A DNA stretch of 64,000 nt from Bacilli bacterium (GTDB lineage: Bacteria > Bacillota_I > Bacilli_A > RFN20 > CAG-826), in NCBI GenBank assembly GCA_017447165.1, contig JAFSOD010000004.1, forward strand, positions 179,267 through 243,266. Reading direction: 5' to 3'. Both the position numbers and the translations under genes were made by a program. Positions 4,528 to 30,373 of the stretch are shown in pieces. Within the stretch, counting starts at the first letter, position 1, and every line of letters starts with the position of its first letter. A model generated the notes under the pieces. The model was not told the origin of the DNA and did not search any database. It was given only the letters and a program-made list of their open reading frames with translations.

Positions 4528-5697
4528 TCACTTATTATAAATAACTTTTGGTCCACTGTCCTTAACAAATATTTCTTGAACATTATTTTCTCCGTAGTGT
4601 TCTTTCATTTTTACTAAAACTTTTTCTAGTTTAGAAGTAGGAACTAAAGCAATAACACTTCCTGCAAAGCCACCACCATTAATTTTGACAGCCCCTTGAT
4701 TATCGCTATATTTCATTAATAAATCACACGCTTCTAAAGGTGAACCTTCGTAGTTAGATCCCACCATCATATTTTTTAAATATTTAGTGGAAGATTCTCT
4801 TGATTCATTAATCATTTTTAAAAATGTTTCTTGTTCATTATCCTGTAGTGCTTTAAAAGCATTTCTCACTCTAGAATTTTCTCCATAAAAATGTTTAGCT
4901 CTTAAATAAGCCATCTCACTCATCTCACTTTTATGAGCTTCTACTTCCTCAAAAGTACCTTCGACTAAATAATTATGTCCACACGCTTTAGCGGCTTCAT
5001 ACATATCACTAGGTATAGAAGAATATAAATCACTGAGAGATGAATGATCTCCACCAGTATTTACTAAAACAAAGTGTAAATCTTTAAATGGGAATTCAAT
5101 TTGTTCAACTAGAGGATCATCAATATTTTTAAAGTCAATTTTTACAACTCCACCAAAACCAACTCCAATTTGATCCAAAAGACCACTTTTCTTTCCAAAA
5201 TATTCATTTTCTGCGTATTTTCCAGCTTTACAAAGTTCTAATTTAGAGATCTTGCCATTATTAAATAAAACATTAAAAATGTGTCCCACTAAAAGTTCGA
5301 AAGCAGCAGAGCTAGATACGCCCGCTCCTTTAAAGATTGTGGATTCGCTATAAGCGTTAAATCCTCCAACTTTGTAGCCATGTTCTTTTAAATAAGCAGC
5401 AACTCCTCTTATTAATCCTTTTGAAGTTGCGTATTCTTTTTCATTCGCGTTTAAATCAGATAAATCTACTTCATCTAACTCAAAACCTAGAGATTGAAAT
5501 AAGACTTTATTAGAGTCGTTTTTACTAACTGAAGCAACAATTTCTAAATTACAAGCACTGGCTAAACATAGACCGTGGTTATGATCTGTATGATTGCCTA
5601 AGATTTCAAAGCGTCCACCACAGGAAAAAACATGTTCAGTGTCACTAACAAATATCTTTTTATATTCAGATAATAATTTAGAAACGTTATCTTCCAC
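4528..5697 (-). CDS. galK: galactokinase-family GHMP kinase
   Basis: 389 aa. Galactokinase signature GRFEILGNHTDHNHG and GHMP ATP motif GAGVSSSAAFE. No galT or galE neighbour, so the substrate is uncertain. Confidence 0.65.
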   Translation of the reverse strand: MEDNVSKLLSEYKKIFVSDTEHVFSCGGRFEILGNHTDHNHGLCLASACNLEIVASVSKNDSNKVLFQSLGFELDEVDLSDLNANEKEYATSKGLIRGVAAYLKEHGYKVGGFNAYSESTIFKGAGVSSSAAFELLVGHIFNVLFNNGKISKLELCKAGKYAENEYFGKKSGLLDQIGVGFGGVVKIDFKNIDDPLVEQIEFPFKDLHFVLVNTGGDHSSLSDLYSSIPSDMYEAAKACGHNYLVEGTFEEVEAHKSEMSEMAYLRAKHFYGENSRVRNAFKALQDNEQETFLKMINESRESSTKYLKNMMVGSNYEGSPLEACDLLMKYSDNQGAVKINGGGFAGSVIALVPTSKLEKVLVKMKEHYGENNVQEIFVKDSGPKVIYNK

Positions 5698-24956: not shown

Positions 24957-25583
24957 TTAATATTCTTCTTTCTTTTTCTTTTTGGTTTTCGCTATTACTA
25001 ATATTTCGATAGTTTTTGCTCCTTTGCTTCTTAATAAATCGATTGAAGTTAAAAGTGTGCTTCCTGTAGTCATAATGTCATCTACTAACAATATCTTTTT
25101 ACCCTTCATTGATATATTTTCATCTATTTCTAAAACATCATTTATCTTATGTCTTCCAAGTGAAGATTGATCAGACTGTTTATGCGCTGTTTTCTTCTTC
25201 AAAATGGGTAATTCTTTAAGCTTTAAACTCTCAAAAATCGCTTTTACGTGATTAAAACCACGCCGCTCATCATCAATGTGATAAGAAGGTATATAGACGA
25301 TATGATAACCATGATATTTTAACTTCAAAAAAGTTAGATATCGATCTAAGAAAACATCCTTTAATTCATAGTCATAACAACCTTTAAATTTATAGATTAA
25401 TTCCTTTATAAAATCTGTATATTCATAGACGGCTGTCCCTTTTATATTTCCTATTTCGAAAGACACAAATTTAGCCTGTAATTTACTAAAACAATCTCCA
25501 CATAAAATGTTCTTCCTTTTCAATAAGTTATATATGGAATTATCCGTTATTCTTTTAAAGCAAATTTTACAGAAATTATCCAT
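24957..25583 (-). CDS. comFC: ComFC/ComF-family protein (phosphoribosyltransferase-like)
   Basis: 208 aa. N-terminal Cys pairs CKIC...CGDC and PRTase motif ILLVDDIMTTGSTL. Overlaps the comFA stop by 8 nt. Confidence 0.85.
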   Translation of the reverse strand: MDNFCKICFKRITDNSIYNLLKRKNILCGDCFSKLQAKFVSFEIGNIKGTAVYEYTDFIKELIYKFKGCYDYELKDVFLDRYLTFLKLKYHGYHIVYIPSYHIDDERRGFNHVKAIFESLKLKELPILKKKTAHKQSDQSSLGRHKINDVLEIDENISMKGKKILLVDDIMTTGSTLLTSIDLLRSKGAKTIEILVIAKTKKKKKEEY

Positions 25584-26775
25584 TATCTAATGCCTCATTA
25601 TTCTTCTTTATTTCTTCTATAGATTCTTTAATATCGGAAGTCACTTTTTCGCATAGATAAATTACTTCTCCTTCTGGCGCATCAGCCTTTCTTCCCACTC
25701 GTCCTGCGATTTGAATTAAAGTGCCTTTTTCATATATTTTATGGTCAGTTTGACTGATAATTACCTGCAAATTCTTTACAGTTACCCCTCTTTCTAGTAC
25801 TGATGTAGTTACTAAATATGAAAATAAGTGATTACGAAATTCTTCGATTATTTCAGATCTATAATTCCTTTTAGAATGAACATAATTTCCACCTTTAACA
25901 AATAAGGAAATTACTCTATAGATTTTCTCACATAAATTAATGGTGGGAGCAAAAACAAATACAGGTTTGTTATTTTTCTTATATTCCTTTATTTTTCTAA
26001 TTAAATATAAGTATTGAAATAGCGTATTTCGTTTAACTATTTTGGGTATTGGAAGAGGATGACGATGAAAACGAACTTCTAATCTTAATATATCTTTGTT
26101 ATCTCCATGGAAATGATCTATTACTTCTTTAGATGGAGTGGCGGACATCATAACATAATGACCACACAAAGATTGATAGAACATGCTATGTAATGTTGGA
26201 TCATCTTTAAACGGAAAAGCGTCTATCTCATCTAGGATAATTAAAGAGAAATAATTCTTGTATCTATATAGTTGATGTGTGGTTAGGACAACTATATCGC
26301 CTTCTTTATCTTTTGTGTGCCCTCCATATAAGCAAACCACTTTGTTATATTTAAATATTTCTCTTAACCTATTATGTAATTCTATTGCAACATCTCTTCT
26401 AGGGAGCGCAAACGCGACCTTATCGCCACAATTAATTGCATATTTAATAATGTTGAGGCAAATTTCAGTCTTTCCTGATCCACATACAGCAAAAACAAGA
26501 CTATCTATTCCTTTCTTATAGTTCTCCACTAACTTATCGGATAATTCTTTCTGTTCTGGAGATAGCTCGTACTCTAAATGAATAGGTGCTTTCTTGGGAT
26601 AAGATGGCTTATGTTCTACTTCTTCACCACGAAAAGAGATACACCTACGACAATAGGGTTTGCCATTAAGATATCCAATTGAATGTATATCGGTGTTACC
26701 ACAAATAGGGCATTTATAAGTTTCTATGTTGCAACATCTCCTTTCTTTTGATTTAATATTTATACAACCTGTCAC
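25576..26775 (-). CDS. comFA: ComFA competence DNA-uptake helicase/translocase (only full-length copy)
   Basis: 399 aa. N-terminal 4-Cys motif CPICG...CRRC, Walker A AVCGSGKTE, DEID box, and the VTTSVLERGVT and QIAGRVGR helicase motifs. The start is uncertain: the track uses GTG 26775 inside a hairpin, and the position homologous to the ATG of fragment F2 is ATA (26727-26725). Confidence 0.85.
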   Translation of the reverse strand: MTGCINIKSKERRCCNIETYKCPICGNTDIHSIGYLNGKPYCRRCISFRGEEVEHKPSYPKKAPIHLEYELSPEQKELSDKLVENYKKGIDSLVFAVCGSGKTEICLNIIKYAINCGDKVAFALPRRDVAIELHNRLREIFKYNKVVCLYGGHTKDKEGDIVVLTTHQLYRYKNYFSLIILDEIDAFPFKDDPTLHSMFYQSLCGHYVMMSATPSKEVIDHFHGDNKDILRLEVRFHRHPLPIPKIVKRNTLFQYLYLIRKIKEYKKNNKPVFVFAPTINLCEKIYRVISLFVKGGNYVHSKRNYRSEIIEEFRNHLFSYLVTTSVLERGVTVKNLQVIISQTDHKIYEKGTLIQIAGRVGRKADAPEGEVIYLCEKVTSDIKESIEEIKKNNEALDNG

Positions 26776-26802
26776 GCAGAGCTAAATAGGCTCAGACAGG
26801 TT
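26766..26802 (-). other. 8-bp-stem hairpin between cassette ORF A1 and the comFA 5' UTR
   Basis: aacctgtc (26766-26773) pairs with gacaggtt (26795-26802). The loop holds a nested gagc/gctc pair. No U-run follows, so it is not a canonical terminator. Confidence 0.5.
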
Positions 26803-26803
26803 T

Positions 26804-27127
26804 TTATTTTAACTTAACAGGTTTTCTTCTTTTTATAATTCTTATTGTCAATCTATCATCAGGGTGTATTTTCATACCAATCAATTCTCTTGATCCAAAA
26901 TGCTTACGTTTACCCTGAACAGGTCTATTGTTCACAAACTAAGCCTTAACTTTATTTTCGGTAGGATGTTTTAGTTTTGTCTGATGTCTATGTTGAGATG
27001 TTCCTGTGATAACAGCAATATAAATGTTCTTTTTATCATTCTTTAAAACAATTAAACCAGGGTGTTTGTTTACTATATAAAATTTTCCTTTTTCTAAATG
27101 TTTGTTATAAATCTTTTTCTTACTCAT
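26804..27127 (-). pseudogene. cassette ORF A1 (small basic protein superfamily), interrupted by an in-frame TAG at 26939-26941
   Basis: The 62-aa ORF is MSKKKIYNKHLEKGKFYIVNKHPGLIVLKNDKKNIYIAVITGTS.... After the TAG, the same frame continues FVNNRPVQGKRKHFGSRELIGMKIHPDDRLTIRIIKRRKPVKLK, which aligns with the C-terminal half of A2. Confidence 0.7.
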
Positions 27128-27142
27128 ATTTCCTCCTTTCTG

Positions 27143-27424
27143 TTATGTATTTCGTGTTTTTGGGGATCCACATACGGCAAAAACTAAACTATCAATTCCT
27201 TTTTTATAATTCTCTACCAGCCTATCTGATAATTCTTTTTGCTCTGGAGACAACTCATATTCAAGATGAATAGGTGCTTTCTTTGGGTAAGATGGTTTAT
27301 GTTCTACTTCTTCGCCTCGAAAAGAGATGCATCTACGACAATAAGGTTTGCCGTTTAGATAGCCAATAGAATGAATATCAGTGTTGCCACAAACTGGACA
27401 AGTAAATGAAAGCTGGTTATCCAT
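27143..27424 (-). CDS. F1: open 93-aa comFA N-terminal fragment (Zn-ribbon region up to a disrupted Walker A, GSPKT)
   Basis: 77 of 79 aligned residues are identical to ComFA, yet 32 of those codons differ synonymously. It ends GSPKTRNT* inside the conserved linker, 15 nt before the ATG of A1. Confidence 0.8.
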   Translation of the reverse strand: MDNQLSFTCPVCGNTDIHSIGYLNGKPYCRRCISFRGEEVEHKPSYPKKAPIHLEYELSPEQKELSDRLVENYKKGIDSLVFAVCGSPKTRNT

Positions 27425-27821
27425 TTTTCTTGCCTTTCTTTTTATGTTTTGATTTAATACTGGTAGATGGTGTGCGCCCTTTCTGGGTTAAAGCTTCATT
27501 CGTTAGCTTTCCACCATTTTTTCTTTGCTCTTTAATTAGTGAAACATATACATCTATTTTTATTTCATCGGAAACTACTAAACGATACTTTTTAAGTTCT
27601 TGTCCTCTATGTCGGAGTTTATCTTTTCTTATATACTTTCTGAAATAAGATTTCTTGTCTGAATTGGGATTTGGATTTACATCAAATTCTTCATAATTTC
27701 CAGTTACAGTTGGACTATCAGTTATTTCGATATTTTCCCATGTTCCATCTTCTAGAACACTGATTTCTATTGATGGGTGGTATTTAGTTCTTTTGTTTTT
27801 AAATATTTTATATTTATTCAT
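27417..27821 (-). CDS. cassette ORF B1, 134-aa basic protein of unknown function
   Basis: MNKYKIFKNKRTKYHPSIEISV...ITDSP...VNPNPNSDKKSYFRKYIRKD...RGQ. Homologous to B2. Its Lys-rich tail is encoded by what is comFA 5' UTR in other copies, and its stop overlaps the F1 start (ATGGATAA). Confidence 0.7.
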   Translation of the reverse strand: MNKYKIFKNKRTKYHPSIEISVLEDGTWENIEITDSPTVTGNYEEFDVNPNPNSDKKSYFRKYIRKDKLRHRGQELKKYRLVVSDEIKIDVYVSLIKEQRKNGGKLTNEALTQKGRTPSTSIKSKHKKKGKKNG

Positions 27822-27840
27822 GTATCAATTCCTTTCTATG

Positions 27841-28113
27841 TTATGGATTTGTTGTTTTTGGTGATCCACATACGGCAAAAACAAGACTATCTAAGCCTTT
27901 TTTGTAATTCTCAACTAACTTATCCGATAGTACTTTTTGCTCTGGAAACAGTTCGTACTCTAAATGAATAGGCGCCTTTTTAGGGTATGATGTTTTGTGT
28001 TCCACTTCTTCACCTTTAAAAGAGATACACCTACGGCAATAAAGTTTGCCGTTCAACATACCAATTGAATGAATATCAGTGTTACCACATACAGGACATT
28101 TATAAGGTTCCAT
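27841..28113 (-). CDS. F2: open 90-aa comFA N-terminal fragment (GSPKT end), the only copy with ATG at the conserved start position
   Basis: MEPYKCPVCGNTDIHSIGMLNGKLYCRRC...AVCGSPKTTNP*. Eight amino-acid differences from ComFA over the shared region. Confidence 0.75.
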   Translation of the reverse strand: MEPYKCPVCGNTDIHSIGMLNGKLYCRRCISFKGEEVEHKTSYPKKAPIHLEYELFPEQKVLSDKLVENYKKGLDSLVFAVCGSPKTTNP

Positions 28114-28148
28114 ATTGAATTATCACCTTTCTTTTGATTTAAAATAGC

Positions 28149-28219
28149 CATAGTCGTGGTCATCACTAGTTTGATGCCGGCCCACAGGAAGCTGTGTAGC
28201 TCCATTAACGGGGCTTTTT
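28149..28219 (-). repeat. E1: ~70-nt structured element, copy 1
   Basis: Aligns base for base with 28981-29050. It contains two 5-bp hairpins: catca/tgatg, and cacag/ctgtg at 28183-28196. Confidence 0.7.
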
Positions 28220-28305
28220 ATTTTTACGGTTTTATAATATTTGCCATATATTGGGCATTTATAAGTTTCTATATTGCGTTACCTCCTTAATTTTGTTTTA
28301 ATATT
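28202..28305 (-). pseudogene. deletion remnant: comFA 5' UTR plus 7 codons fused to the last ~14 codons of an A-type cassette ORF
   Basis: Minus strand reads aaggaggtaacgcaat ATA GAA ACT TAT AAA TGC CCA ATA TAT GGC AAA TAT TAT AAA. The comFA start (IETYKCPI) runs into the A2-like tail (PIYG.YYK...), with the junction at about 28246-28256. Confidence 0.65.
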
Positions 28306-28360
28306 TGTAGTTAGTGCTATCGGTTAATCCGACCAAAGCCCAAGTTTAGTAGGTTTTACA

Positions 28361-28657
28361 CTAACTTTTTTTGTTGTTTAAATAGTTTTCAATTTCAATT
28401 AAATCATCTTCTGATAGGTTGAATTTTTCCAAAAGTTGACCTCTTGTTTTAATTGGATCCTTTCTTAAATACTTTCTAACATATGCTTTATCATTTCTTT
28501 TTGGATTCGGATTTACTTTAAGCTCAATATATCTGTTCTTCTTAGTGGGGCTTGAAGTTACTTCTAAATTAATCCAAATAGTTCCGTTTGAATCTACTTC
28601 TATGCTTGGATGATTTTTTGTTTTTCTGTTTTTATAGAATTTGAATTTTTTGCTCAT
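28361..28657 (-). CDS. cassette ORF B2, ~98-aa basic protein of unknown function
   Basis: MSKKFKFYKNRKTKNHPSIEVDS...VTSSP...VNPNPKRNDKAYVRKYLRKD...RGQ. I prefer the ATG at 28657 (SD aaaggagg) over the track start at 28687. Confidence 0.7.
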   Translation of the reverse strand: MSKKFKFYKNRKTKNHPSIEVDSNGTIWINLEVTSSPTKKNRYIELKVNPNPKRNDKAYVRKYLRKDPIKTRGQLLEKFNLSEDDLIEIENYLNNKKS

Positions 28658-28696
28658 TTGACACCTCCTTTTTGTTATGGTTTTCAAGTCTTTGGT

Positions 28697-28945
28697 GATC
28701 CTTATATCGCATAAACTAAATTATCTATCCCTTTCTTATAGTTCTCCACTAACTTATCCGATAGTTCTTTCTGCTCAGGGGGACAACTCATACGATAAGT
28801 GAATTGGGGCCTTACGATATGAAGGCTTATGTTCCACTGCTTAACCCTTAAAATAGATACATCTTCGGGAGTAATGTTTGCCGTTTAGGTATCCTATTGA
28901 ATGAATACCAATGTTTCCACAAACTGGGCATTTATATGTTTCGAT
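28697..28945 (-). pseudogene. F3: decayed comFA 5' fragment
   Basis: Reads IETYKCPVCGNIGIHSIGYLNGKHYSRRCIYFKG* with GAA->TAA, loss of one Zn-ligand Cys (C->S), and a later 1-nt insertion (tccccctga). Confidence 0.8.
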
Positions 28946-28980
28946 ATTGCATCATCTCCTTAAATTTGATTTAATAATGT

Positions 28981-29050
28981 CATGGTCGTGGTCATCACAA
29001 GTTTGATGCCGACTCGTAGGTAACTACGCAGCTCCATTAACGGGGCTTTT
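28981..29050 (-). repeat. E2: ~70-nt structured element, copy 2 (overlaps the stop of A2)
   Basis: Same architecture as E1. The hairpin cgtag/ctacg at 29015-29028 carries two compensatory base-pair changes relative to E1. Confidence 0.7.
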
Positions 29051-29441
29051 TTATTTTTTTGCGTTTTTTATAATAAGAACCGTAAATAGGATTACCTTTT
29101 TGTACTTTAATAATTAAATACATATCTTGGATGCTAAACGACATATCTGGATATTCTTTTTCTCCGTAATCATTTCTATCTCCTATAAAAGGTCTTTTCT
29201 TTATTAGCGATATTTCAACGTTACTATCGGTTGCATGTTTTAATTTGTAATATCCTTTTCTTAAACCTAGACGATCAAATTCTTCTTTGGTCATTGATCC
29301 AGTGATAATTGCATAGAAAGCTTTATCTTCATTATCAATTTTAAAAATTTGTCCAGGATGTCCACCTGGGCTACCATCTAAAACACGATAAAACTTGCCG
29401 ATTTCAAGTGTTATCTTGTGTTTTCTTTTCTTTTTACTCAT
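29037..29441 (-). CDS. cassette ORF A2, 134-aa basic protein of unknown function
   Basis: MSKKKRKHKITLEIGKFYRVLDGSPGGHPGQIFKIDNEDKAFYAIITGS...KKRPFIGDRNDYG...IQDMYLIIKV...KKRKKIKKPR. SD aaaggagg before the ATG. Confidence 0.7.
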   Translation of the reverse strand: MSKKKRKHKITLEIGKFYRVLDGSPGGHPGQIFKIDNEDKAFYAIITGSMTKEEFDRLGLRKGYYKLKHATDSNVEISLIKKRPFIGDRNDYGEKEYPDMSFSIQDMYLIIKVQKGNPIYGSYYKKRKKIKKPR

Positions 29442-29480
29442 ATTTTCCTCCTTTCTTGTTATGTTTTTAGTATCTTTAGC

Positions 29481-29603
29481 GATTCACATACCGCAAAAAT
29501 AATCTATCAATTCCCTTCTTATAGTTCTCCACTAACTTATCTGATAGTTCTTTCTGCTCTGGAGACAGTTCATATGAAAGATGAATAGGTGCTTTCTTAG
29601 AAT
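29481..29603 (-). pseudogene. F4: 5'-truncated, frameshifted comFA fragment (codons ~45-88)
   Basis: Reads KKAPIHLSYELSPEQKELSDKLVENYKKGID, then is frameshifted. At about 29603 its 5' end is fused to the truncated U5 ORF. Confidence 0.75.
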
Positions 29604-29727
29604 ATGAATGTTACTCTATGAAAAACGAAAACATTTCCTTCTTCATCAACGATATTTGCTGGGTGGTTGTTTTTTAAATAAATTCTGAAGTGCCTCCTGA
29701 AAGAACTATTTTTTGTTTTTGTTTCAT
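29604..29727 (-). pseudogene. U5: frameshifted and truncated remnant of a fifth cassette ORF
   Basis: ATG at 29727 after the conserved linker (aaatacataacataaaggag). Reads MKQKQKIVLSGGTSEFI*, then in another frame KNNHPANIVDEEGNVFVFHRVT, which matches the family HP-x-I core. Confidence 0.55.
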
Positions 29728-29892
29728 TTTTTCTCCTTTATGTTATGTATTTATTTCTTGTAGATCAGGGCGGCCTTTATTTTTTTATAGGTTTTCTCCT
29801 TTTATAATTGATAAAAAACTCCCTACATTATATATAGAGTGGCTTTCTTCATTTTTTTGTGAAAAAAAGTTTAATAAATCTTTATAGGTATT

Positions 29893-29914
29893 AAAAAAAG
29901 GCCTATAGGCCTTT
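29893..29914 (-). terminator. rho-independent terminator of rpiB (upstream boundary of the cassette array)
   Basis: Minus strand reads aaaggcctataggcc followed by ttttttt. Confidence 0.7.
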
Positions 29915-29935
29915 ATGTATTAAATATTTTTTAGA

Positions 29936-30373
29936 TTATTTTTCTAAGTCGTTAATCATCTCAACACGAGTTAAGTGTCTACCACCTTCAAATTCAGTGT
30001 TAAGGAAGATATCCACTCTTCTAAGAACATCTTCTAAAGCCATAAATTTTTGACCAAAGGAGATAACGTTTGCGTCATTATGTTGTCTCATTAATCTAGC
30101 AACTTCATCGTTATAGGCAATACCGCATCTAACGCCTTTGATTTTATTAGCCGCAATAGAGATACCCTCTCCACTAGTGCAGACAACAACACCAAATTGA
30201 CATTTTTTAGAAGCTACTTTTCTAGCTACTTCAGCGCCATATAAAGGATAATGGCAACTATCTAAAGAATAAGTACCAACATCAATTACTTCATGTCCTA
30301 ATTCTTTTAAATGTTCTGCGATCGCGTTTTTATATTCTAATCCGCCATGATCACTACCAACTGCAATTTTCAT
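29936..30373 (-). CDS. rpiB: ribose-5-phosphate isomerase B
   Basis: 145 aa starting MKIAVGSDHGG, with CTSGEGISIAANK. Typical RpiB/LacAB. Confidence 0.9.
   Translation of the reverse strand: MKIAVGSDHGGLEYKNAIAEHLKELGHEVIDVGTYSLDSCHYPLYGAEVARKVASKKCQFGVVVCTSGEGISIAANKIKGVRCGIAYNDEVARLMRQHNDANVISFGQKFMALEDVLRRVDIFLNTEFEGGRHLTRVEMINDLEK

Follow-up and report, generated by a model that had tools for sequence, protein, structure and literature searches.

How did four partial copies of the start of comFA come to lie, interleaved with small genes, between rpiB and the live comFA gene of an uncultured Bacilli bacterium? The locus is on GenBank contig JAFSOD010000004.1, from which a stretch of 64,000 nucleotides (nt), below called the window, was analysed. 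Coordinates are positions in the window, and all listed features are on its minus strand, in the order secA, comFC, comFA, 3.2 kb of array and rpiB. An earlier note on this DNA read the array as a chronological stack, in which new units enter at the live gene and older ones age upstream, as in integrons or CRISPR arrays. Our analysis makes it probable that comFA has a displacement array at its 5' end, grown and reshuffled by homologous recombination within a repeated gene start.

The repeated element, called the module, comprises the first ~86 codons of comFA. Repeat finding, alignment and an nhmmer profile identified four comFA 5' fragments (F1 to F4, counted from the live gene) and one stub in the interval between rpiB and live comFA, interleaved with small open reading frames (ORFs), the cargo (U1 to U5). 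The fragments match the module profile with E = 1e-33 to 1e-76, far above chance. Since an identical gene order is found on about 20–24 contigs from other samples, one of them 718 kb long, the array is real and not an assembly artefact. The features are listed below; J is the junction at which a fragment ends.

24957-25583, minus strand: comFC (Pribosyltran), operon partner downstream of comFA, in the flank outside the array.
25576-26727, minus strand: live comFA, with DEAD, ResIII and Helicase_C domains.
26467-26727, minus strand: module of live comFA, codons 1 to ~86, a mobile N-terminal Zn-ribbon module.
26467-26481, minus strand: Walker A codons (GSGKT) of live comFA.
26728-26803, minus strand: spacer of the proximal unit, with the hairpin CCTGTC...GACAGG (26768-26800; fold z = -1.2, not significant) and the comFA ribosome-binding site (RBS).
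26804-27127, minus strand: cargo U1, A2-like family, a pseudogene with an in-frame TAG at 26939-26941 (62 aa, stop, 43 aa).
27143-27424, minus strand: F1, displaced comFA module, intact 93-aa ORF ending ...CGSPKTRNT*; J at 27132-27169.
27417-27821, minus strand: cargo U2, family B1, 134 aa, intact, with a MazF/ToxN-like fold and a basic disordered tail.
27841-28113, minus strand: F2, displaced module, intact 90-aa ORF with an ATG start; J at 27830-27867.
28114-28272, minus strand: deletion scar made up of a module-start stub, the end of a deleted cargo and that cargo's spacer.
28228-28272, minus strand: the stub of the comFA start, 45 nt.
28205-28219, minus strand: last codons of the deleted A1-type (U4-type) cargo, fused to the stub; its spacer is at 28114-28204.
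28273-28657, minus strand: cargo U3, family B2, 98 aa, intact (ATG at 28657, stop 28361-28363), with its spacer (28273-28360).
28664-28945, minus strand: F3, displaced damaged module (fragment ~28688-28945); J at 28664-28701.
28946-29036, minus strand: A1-type spacer between U4 and F3; fold z = -1.1.
29037-29441, minus strand: cargo U4, family A1, 134 aa, intact, with a MazF/CptN-like fold.
29447-29612, minus strand: F4, 5'-truncated and frameshifted module (fragment ~29480-29612; profile positions 110-243); J at 29447-29485.
29609-29766, minus strand: U5, family-C cargo remnant (ATG 29725-29727, codons ~3-34), fused to F4.
29733-29766, minus strand: degenerate J before U5, the sole remainder of the outermost fragment.
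29936-30373, minus strand: rpiB, with its terminator at 29897-29914 (whole feature 29897-30373).

About 120 related loci, denoted by L-numbers, were collected in one scan of species-representative genomes and one of metagenomes. All belong to uncultured rumen or gut Bacilli, whose metagenome-assembled genomes (MAGs) are labelled Erysipelotrichaceae, Bacillales or Bacilli, and each occupies the interval between rpiB and comFA; in every related genome, the array has rpiB with its terminator as its constant outer limit. About one third of the loci are naive, with a gap of ~80–250 nt between rpiB and comFA (the shortest, in L027, L034 and L041, being 81–115 nt), and the others hold one to six units each.

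The live genes demonstrate that the start of comFA travels between hosts. The N-terminal 88 aa of ComFA are 90–98% identical between hosts, and the remainder 46–70%; along 44 module-type live genes, identity stays at ~1.0 through codon 86 and then falls to 0.2–0.7. This drop identifies the first ~86 codons as a horizontally mobile module. Close relatives with ComFA bodies 97–99% identical have modules that differ at 13–23% of nucleotides, and different cargo (the window vs L001; L007/L067/L073; L003/L065). L001, the closest relative of the window (ComFA body 97% identical), has an entirely different array of one unit. A second module lineage, type 2 (..FRGQEA....YELSDDQKRLSNQLVENYKNGIDSLVH), occurs live or displaced in L029, L113, L107, L032 and L114. 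Its last third is 96% identical between hosts with ~52% identical ComFA bodies; it thus behaves like the first module, and more than one module type circulates.

Synonymous divergence (dS) equals 1.69 between the live module and F1, 1.27 between the live module and F2 and 1.54 between F1 and F2, so that F1 is farther than F2 from the live copy at synonymous sites, and nonsynonymous divergence (dN) is 0.02–0.07 among the copies (0.022 for live–F1, 0.070 for live–F2). Given saturated dS and low dN, the fragments are old, separately evolved alleles rather than successive copies of the live gene. Such rates point to long divergence under strong purifying selection, as working gene starts elsewhere. 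Once displaced, the copies deteriorate: a Zn-ligand Cys is lost in 7 of 25 full-length displaced modules vs 0 of 90 live ones (p = 1e-5), and about 11 of the 25 contain stops or frameshifts. We favour the reading that displaced copies decay neutrally and that the cargo is mostly kept. "Orthologous" displaced fragments between the same cargo families are too deeply diverged (proportion of synonymous differences 0.63–0.87) for an estimate of post-displacement dN/dS. Apart from codon bias, synonymous-site conservation along the module shows no clear hotspot at the nucleotide level. When the module is divided into thirds, their association with the cargo family on either side is weak and confounded by deletions.

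All fragments end at one point inside the Walker A codons, where GSGKT becomes GSPKT, followed by a stop. The live gene reads GGATCA GG AAAGAC TGAAAT (GSGKTE) at this point; the fragments read GGATCC CC AAARAC ACGAAATCCATAACA GAAAGGAG (GSPKTRNP*), with the RBS and ATG of the next cargo behind. The stop of the displaced ORF is 10–20 nt before the cargo start. In 31 non-identical junctions from nine cargo families, the motif GGATCC-CC-AAARAC-ACG-AAATCC-ATAACA-GAAAGGAG is ~80% or more conserved at most positions. J can be recognised as comFA sequence that continues in degenerate form. A dif/Xer-like interpretation of J was abandoned, since it shows no evident resemblance to dif sequences.

The tract shared between species at 92–100% nucleotide identity usually runs from the cargo RBS to the next module start, with flanking modules 75–85% identical. 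Tracts of cargo and spacer identity occur at any position in an array. The U3 cassette is 92–100% identical to copies in L012, L029 and L039, and this third unit of the window is 97–100% identical to copies that are proximal elsewhere. A larger unit, consisting of A2 cargo, spacer and module and conserved at 95–100% nucleotide identity, is attached to the gene in L025 and displaced in L017; in the latter, J and an A4 unit come after it, and identity is lost 30–60 nt before Walker A. The 5' leader and first codons of a module co-vary with the upstream cargo. The first two core codons of F1 differ from those of the live module (FT vs YK) because F1 has a different, cargo-linked 5' start. In L114, a full-length host-type fragment stands directly after rpiB, followed by J and cargo, just as a first displacement would leave it.

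Crossovers inside the module can be seen as well. In five host groups (L028/29/103, L100/101, L104, L106, L110) the live module is a mosaic, with the first ~27 codons foreign and the other type thereafter, the switch being near codon 27. The displaced fragment of L029 keeps host-native first codons, as in its relatives L116 and L033, and the live gene of L029 has foreign first codons; the two are the reciprocal outcomes of one exchange within the module. Breakpoints vary (codon ~27, about −50 nt, near Walker A) and coincide with the patches of strongest conservation between module types. No recombinase was found in or near any of the ~120 loci; the neighbouring genes identified by ORF calling and Pfam are dnaX, prfA, prmC, tsaC, rpiB, comFA, comFC, secA, prfB and uvrB. 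The U2 and U4 proteins had no match in phage records, where the module had five weak matches only (34–45% identity), four of them to Listeria phage records and one to a human faecal phage contig. The profiles of the module and of the A1 (U4) cargo found no relative in IMG/VR; plasmids were not searched.

The variable breakpoints, the mosaics and the absence of a recombinase favour homologous recombination as the mechanism. The mobile unit would consist of the junction with the RBS, a small cargo gene, a spacer and replacement comFA codons 1 to ~86, the comFA piece being a portable homology arm. On recombination with the resident comFA, the module of the unit would become the new gene start, and the old start would stay upstream as a dead fragment that stops past the Walker A codons (GSGKT as GSPKT, then TAA). 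The recombination would be of the RecA type, inside the ~250-nt module, with crossovers in conserved patches. Growth of the array might proceed via an excised circle or unequal exchange, the scheme proposed for Rhs tips (PMC2935791), and replacement or deletion of cassettes via ordinary double crossovers between any two module copies. As every module copy is a possible partner, cassette swaps, module shuffling and unit deletions could take place anywhere in the array. As only the last copy is joined to the gene body, displacement of the live 5' end would add a unit next to the gene. Illegitimate deletions would produce the stubs and 5'-truncated fragments. Delivery would be by natural transformation, which we infer because the hosts keep intact comFA and comFC and no vector was found.

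Several points weigh against homologous recombination within the module. At ~80% DNA identity, modules are a poor substrate for RecA. The A3 cassette of L032, 100% identical to those of L018 and L039, adjoins a module that is only ~60% similar. The drop of identity at cargo edges is sharp in most comparisons, and the conservation of J far exceeds the saturated synonymous background. Low module identity, sharp edges, conserved J and the L032 case would also fit a sequence-specific enzyme encoded elsewhere. Further, the outermost fragment is full length in none of the 41 arrays with a defined rpiB boundary, a stronger rule than simple ageing predicts.

The model of the earlier note, in which integron-like circular units of cargo and module are inserted by a trans-acting recombinase at the live Walker A site only and form a strict chronological stack, draws on several of the same facts. 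It would explain the single invariant end point of the fragments with a conserved ~30-nt J, the GG>CC change that destroys the site in every displaced copy, the sharp edges of identity, the poorly homologous neighbour of the L032 cassette, the unit displaced in L017 and attached in L025, and an outermost fragment that is always the most degraded. We nevertheless consider it unlikely, given the lack of a recombinase at the loci surveyed, crossovers that vary (codon ~27 in five host groups, 30–60 nt before Walker A in L017), the reciprocal mosaic product in L029, inner fragments with no positional gradient and the failure of dS to order the fragments. Nor do the cassettes share an attC-like hairpin: those of families B1, C and E have no spacer, and the folds of the others are not significant. 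Local tandem duplication of the comFA 5' region with decay in place and no horizontal transfer, suggested by the common orientation of the direct repeats and their graded damage in the window, is already refuted: dS is saturated between the copies at dN of only 0.02–0.07, cargo is 92–100% identical in species with ~50% identical ComFA bodies, and the array of L001 is wholly different.

Highly improbable is silent-cassette variation of the pilS/pilE or vlsE kind, with the fragments acting as gene-conversion donors for the live ComFA N-terminus. Promoterless partial copies do lie upstream of one expressed gene with mosaic live modules, but copies 90–98% identical in protein, with mainly synonymous differences, have no diversity to deliver; moreover, ComFA is cytoplasmic, displaced copies gain stops and lose Zn ligands, and the variable element is the interleaved cargo. 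An addiction module, with MazF-fold cargo as the toxin and the ComFA N-module (live or as a displaced ORF of ~90 aa) as the antitoxin, would account for the extreme protein conservation of the module (dN/dS about 0.01–0.05), the toxin-like cargo fold and the type II operon-like spacing of 10–20 nt from the stop of the fragment ORF to the start of the cargo. We regard it as improbable, since displaced ORFs decay beside intact cargo (U3 and U4 are flanked by the broken F3 and F4, and 7 of 25 have lost a Cys), unrelated cargo, a YhcG nuclease included, comes with the same module, and in many arrays the first cargo lacks an upstream fragment.

The order of decay described in the earlier note is borne out in the window by fragment-by-fragment alignment: damage to the comFA fragments increases with distance from the live gene. 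Over codons 3–81, F1 differs from the live copy by 2 amino acids and F2 by 8, and both are open. Beyond the stub, F3 contains the reported nonsense codon (GAA>TAA) and a second stop, a +1 frameshift (CCCCC), a 3-nt deletion and a Cys>Ser change in the second Zn-ligand pair (YCRRC>YSRRC). F4, frameshifted and without its first ~36 codons, is joined to what is left of U5, codons ~3–34 alone. The gradient is restricted to comFA fragments and does not extend to cargo: the middle ORFs U2, U3 and U4 are intact, and the proximal U1, with the in-frame TAG that the note had treated as an exception, and the outermost U5 are damaged. The U1 homologue in L009 has Ser at the position of the TAG. This copy (L009:9598-9903), the only other one of U1 type found, reads through that position, yet is frameshifted near codon 6; both known copies of the U1 variant are thus pseudogenes. 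With two intact and two damaged full or partial fragments, an ordered pattern is expected by chance in about one case in six.

The conclusion drawn from this order, insertion next to comFA with ageing upstream, is supported in part. The L017/L025 unit and the outermost fragments that are never full length speak for it; the unordered dS, the ungraded inner fragments and cargo and the recombination within the repeat speak against it. Strict comFA-proximal insertion is plausible for some events and is unproven as a rule. The check that had been proposed, dating by synonymous divergence, gives no gradient, dS being saturated and unordered, and the analogy with integrons and CRISPR arrays fails, as the locus lacks a recombinase, attC-like structures and cas genes. 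The decay order in the window fits an outermost fragment that was displaced first and does not establish entry next to the gene for every unit. The stack would thus be no clean newest-next-to-gene record, having been built and reshuffled by recombination between repeated gene starts.

Across arrays one positional rule alone holds: the outermost fragment is never full length, vs 14 of 29 inner fragments that are (p = 4e-7). Upstream of the outermost cargo, 32 of the 41 arrays have an undetectable fragment or a J remnant and 9 a 5'-truncated one. The inner fragments show no trend, with 8 intact and 11 damaged at position 1 and 3 and 6 at positions ≥2 (p = 1.0), and cargo integrity is not graded by position. 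The rule may reflect selection against an expressed truncated ComFA or another route of first entry, e.g. homology-facilitated illegitimate recombination. Outermost fragments often have internal deletions that join the first codons of the module to the last (L101 ~740-800; L029:8992-9111; L067 ~4540-4650); the join in L101 is at the repeated TGTGG of CPICG and AVCGS. Such deletions look like microhomology-mediated collapse of the first-displaced copy.

Every contig that shares the exact ComFC, rpiB or U2 protein of this strain has an identical array, and close relatives differ mostly by deletions and by whole cassettes at various positions. The pair L004 and L086, with a common proximal part and differing distal parts, was rejected as evidence of polarity, since differential deletion from a longer ancestor fits equally well. 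The pair L084 and L087 was set aside: their modules and ComFA bodies are identical and their rpiB genes unrelated (59% and 69% identical to that of the window). Their cargo regions are only 91% identical, and one is probably a recombinant or a chimeric metagenome contig.

Cargo of families A1–A4, B1, B2, C and D encodes small basic proteins (100–135 aa), and that of family E one of 330 aa; cassettes are 92–100% identical across species. Two families have the SH3-like barrel of MazF, Kid and CcdB, in a MazF/CptN/Kid/CcdB/ToxN-like fold. The four window cargo ORFs have no match in Pfam, PHROGs or PADLOC, searches of cargo against PDB profiles gave none either, the array has none in Rfam, and profile comparison detected no homology between A1 and B1. 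The sole ORF adjoining each cargo is a displaced comFA fragment, decaying beside intact cargo; no second small gene accompanies each unit as an immunity gene would, and Tandem Repeats Finder and repeat scans found no tandem RNA array in 26400-30000. Family E, absent from the window, is YhcG/DUF1016, with DUF1016_N and a YhcG_C PD-(D/E)XK domain; L002:8456-9448 matches Pfam at 6e-38 and 5.5e-52 and PADLOC PDC-S02, a candidate defence gene, at 1.5e-113. On these grounds the cargo may be regarded as putative toxin or defence genes. Intact copies of family E are found in L002:8456-9448, L001:9007-9999, L020, L024 and L089, and remnants with independent deletions in L005, L013, L023, L029, L069, L086 and L096, which suggests frequent loss.

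The cassettes of families B1, C and E run straight into the module start without a spacer. In the other families the spacer hairpins differ, and they fold no better than shuffled sequences (z −1.1 to −2.1). In other genomes, spacers of A2- and A3-type cassettes end with the hairpin and leader seen at the proximal unit of the window. A non-coding spacer of ~130 nt with three possible hairpins, which follows A3 cargo and in part also A2 cargo, is 95–100% conserved between species; its fold z-score is only −2.1 and it has no Rfam match.

L018:9830-9990: conserved A3 spacer, with equivalents in L006, L012, L032, L039, L064 and L086 and a related hairpin at 26768-26800 in the window.

A further reading, which we hold tentatively, gives the cassettes a life of their own. 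They would be minimal selfish or beneficial elements that cross species by transformation, with a universally compatible 86-codon homology arm, taken from the DNA-uptake motor gene itself, repairing the target on entry; the MazF-fold and YhcG nuclease cargo, co-transcribed with the competence operon, would serve defence or addiction, and J would be a dedicated regulatory or recombination signal. If so, any cell able to import the DNA would necessarily carry the target of the cassette.

Among known systems, the nearest logic is the C-terminal displacement of Rhs, CdiA and MafB (Jackson et al. 2009, PMC2935791). Rhs tips are proposed to recombine homologously in the conserved region via an excised circle, which shunts the incumbent tip aside (PMC2935791). 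The comFA locus likewise has an intact gene and fragments that each keep part of the conserved region, mirrored to the 5' side; one and the same tip can be joined to the gene in one genome and separated from it in another (L025/L017); the tips are old exogenous alleles and not rapidly diverging copies; and recombination falls within the conserved region, as the mosaics, the reciprocal product in L029 and the L017 breakpoint indicate. The differences are that here the 5' end of the gene is displaced upstream, in mirror image, that the displaced tip is 90–98% conserved in protein and the variable payload is a separate ORF between fragments, and that the host gene encodes a cytoplasmic DNA-uptake ATPase and not a secreted toxin, with no immunity genes.

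Integrons resemble the array in their small, promoter-poor, diverse single-gene cassettes at one chromosomal site, shared between species in different orders, but here there is no IntI (IntI-type tyrosine recombinase), attI or attC, the inter-cassette repeat is a 250-nt coding fragment of the neighbouring gene, and crossovers vary. Unlike CRISPR arrays, the locus has coding fragments of 250 nt for repeats, genes for 'spacers', and no cas genes. Accretion of integrative and conjugative, integrative mobilizable and cis-mobilizable elements (ICE/IME/CIME; PMC5704250) and tycheposons, whose islands are flanked by partial tRNA repeats (bioRxiv 10.1101/2020.12.28.424599), are alike in that each arrival restores the target gene and leaves a partial copy, and in having integrase-less cargo modules between repeats. 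They differ in that the units here are 0.6–1.2 kb, the duplicated piece is long (the 250-nt 5' coding region), no integrase is found nearby or in viral collections, and breakpoints indicate homologous and not site-specific recombination. Prophages insert into comFA in Streptococcus equi/suis and Bacillus cereus/thuringiensis (PMC12378983), so that comFA is a recurrent target of mobile DNA; whole prophages interrupt the gene there, whereas here the gene is restored and single-gene cassettes carry no phage genes. In comparison with the MazF/Kid/CcdB and ToxN/CptN/AbiQ toxins, the cargo has no sequence-family match in Pfam, PDB profiles or PADLOC and no evident cognate antitoxin gene, nor tandem RNA repeats, and it has His-Pro instead of the usual Arg-Pro. 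To our knowledge, no self-repairing single-gene cassette array at comFA is described in the literature searched.

The locus thus presents a competence or housekeeping gene whose first domain acts as a cross-species mobile module and scaffolds a cassette array with no visible recombinase. It extends the logic of displacement from the 3' ends of secreted-toxin genes to the 5' end of a gene for a cytoplasmic ATPase, and exposes several unannotated MazF-fold protein families, with hundreds of variants in rumen metagenomes, together with a candidate defence nuclease. The cargo appears to be placed for expression with the DNA-uptake machinery, and the system bears on the conflict between transformation and mobile elements.

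The live comFA probably starts at an ATA codon (26725-26727), 9 nt past AAAGGAG; an in-frame GTG upstream, at 26775, is inside the hairpin and has no RBS. The start codons of F1 overlap the 3' end of U2. An ATA start is also apparent in most type-i modules elsewhere (AAAGGAG-N9-ATA GAA ACT TAT AAA TGC, from an alignment of 24 loci), and F2 and some other modules have ATG at this codon. With ATA, this competence gene may have a start codon that is non-canonical and of low efficiency. A promoter scan of the array gave fewer matches than shuffled sequence and was uninformative.

The arrays break MAG assemblies and would be mis-annotated as comFA pseudogenes. In two cases an array is split over two contigs that end inside modules (L039 with L008, MAG RGIG9216; L040 with L021, MAG UBA3835). 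Short-read assemblies break at the repeats, so that MAGs probably understate the lengths of arrays. In L033, L035, L116, L117, L137, L102 and L072, which have non-type-1 modules, a single, often divergent cargo is located 87–91 nt after rpiB without J. Such loci may represent the ancestral cargo–comFA operon that gave rise to the arrays.

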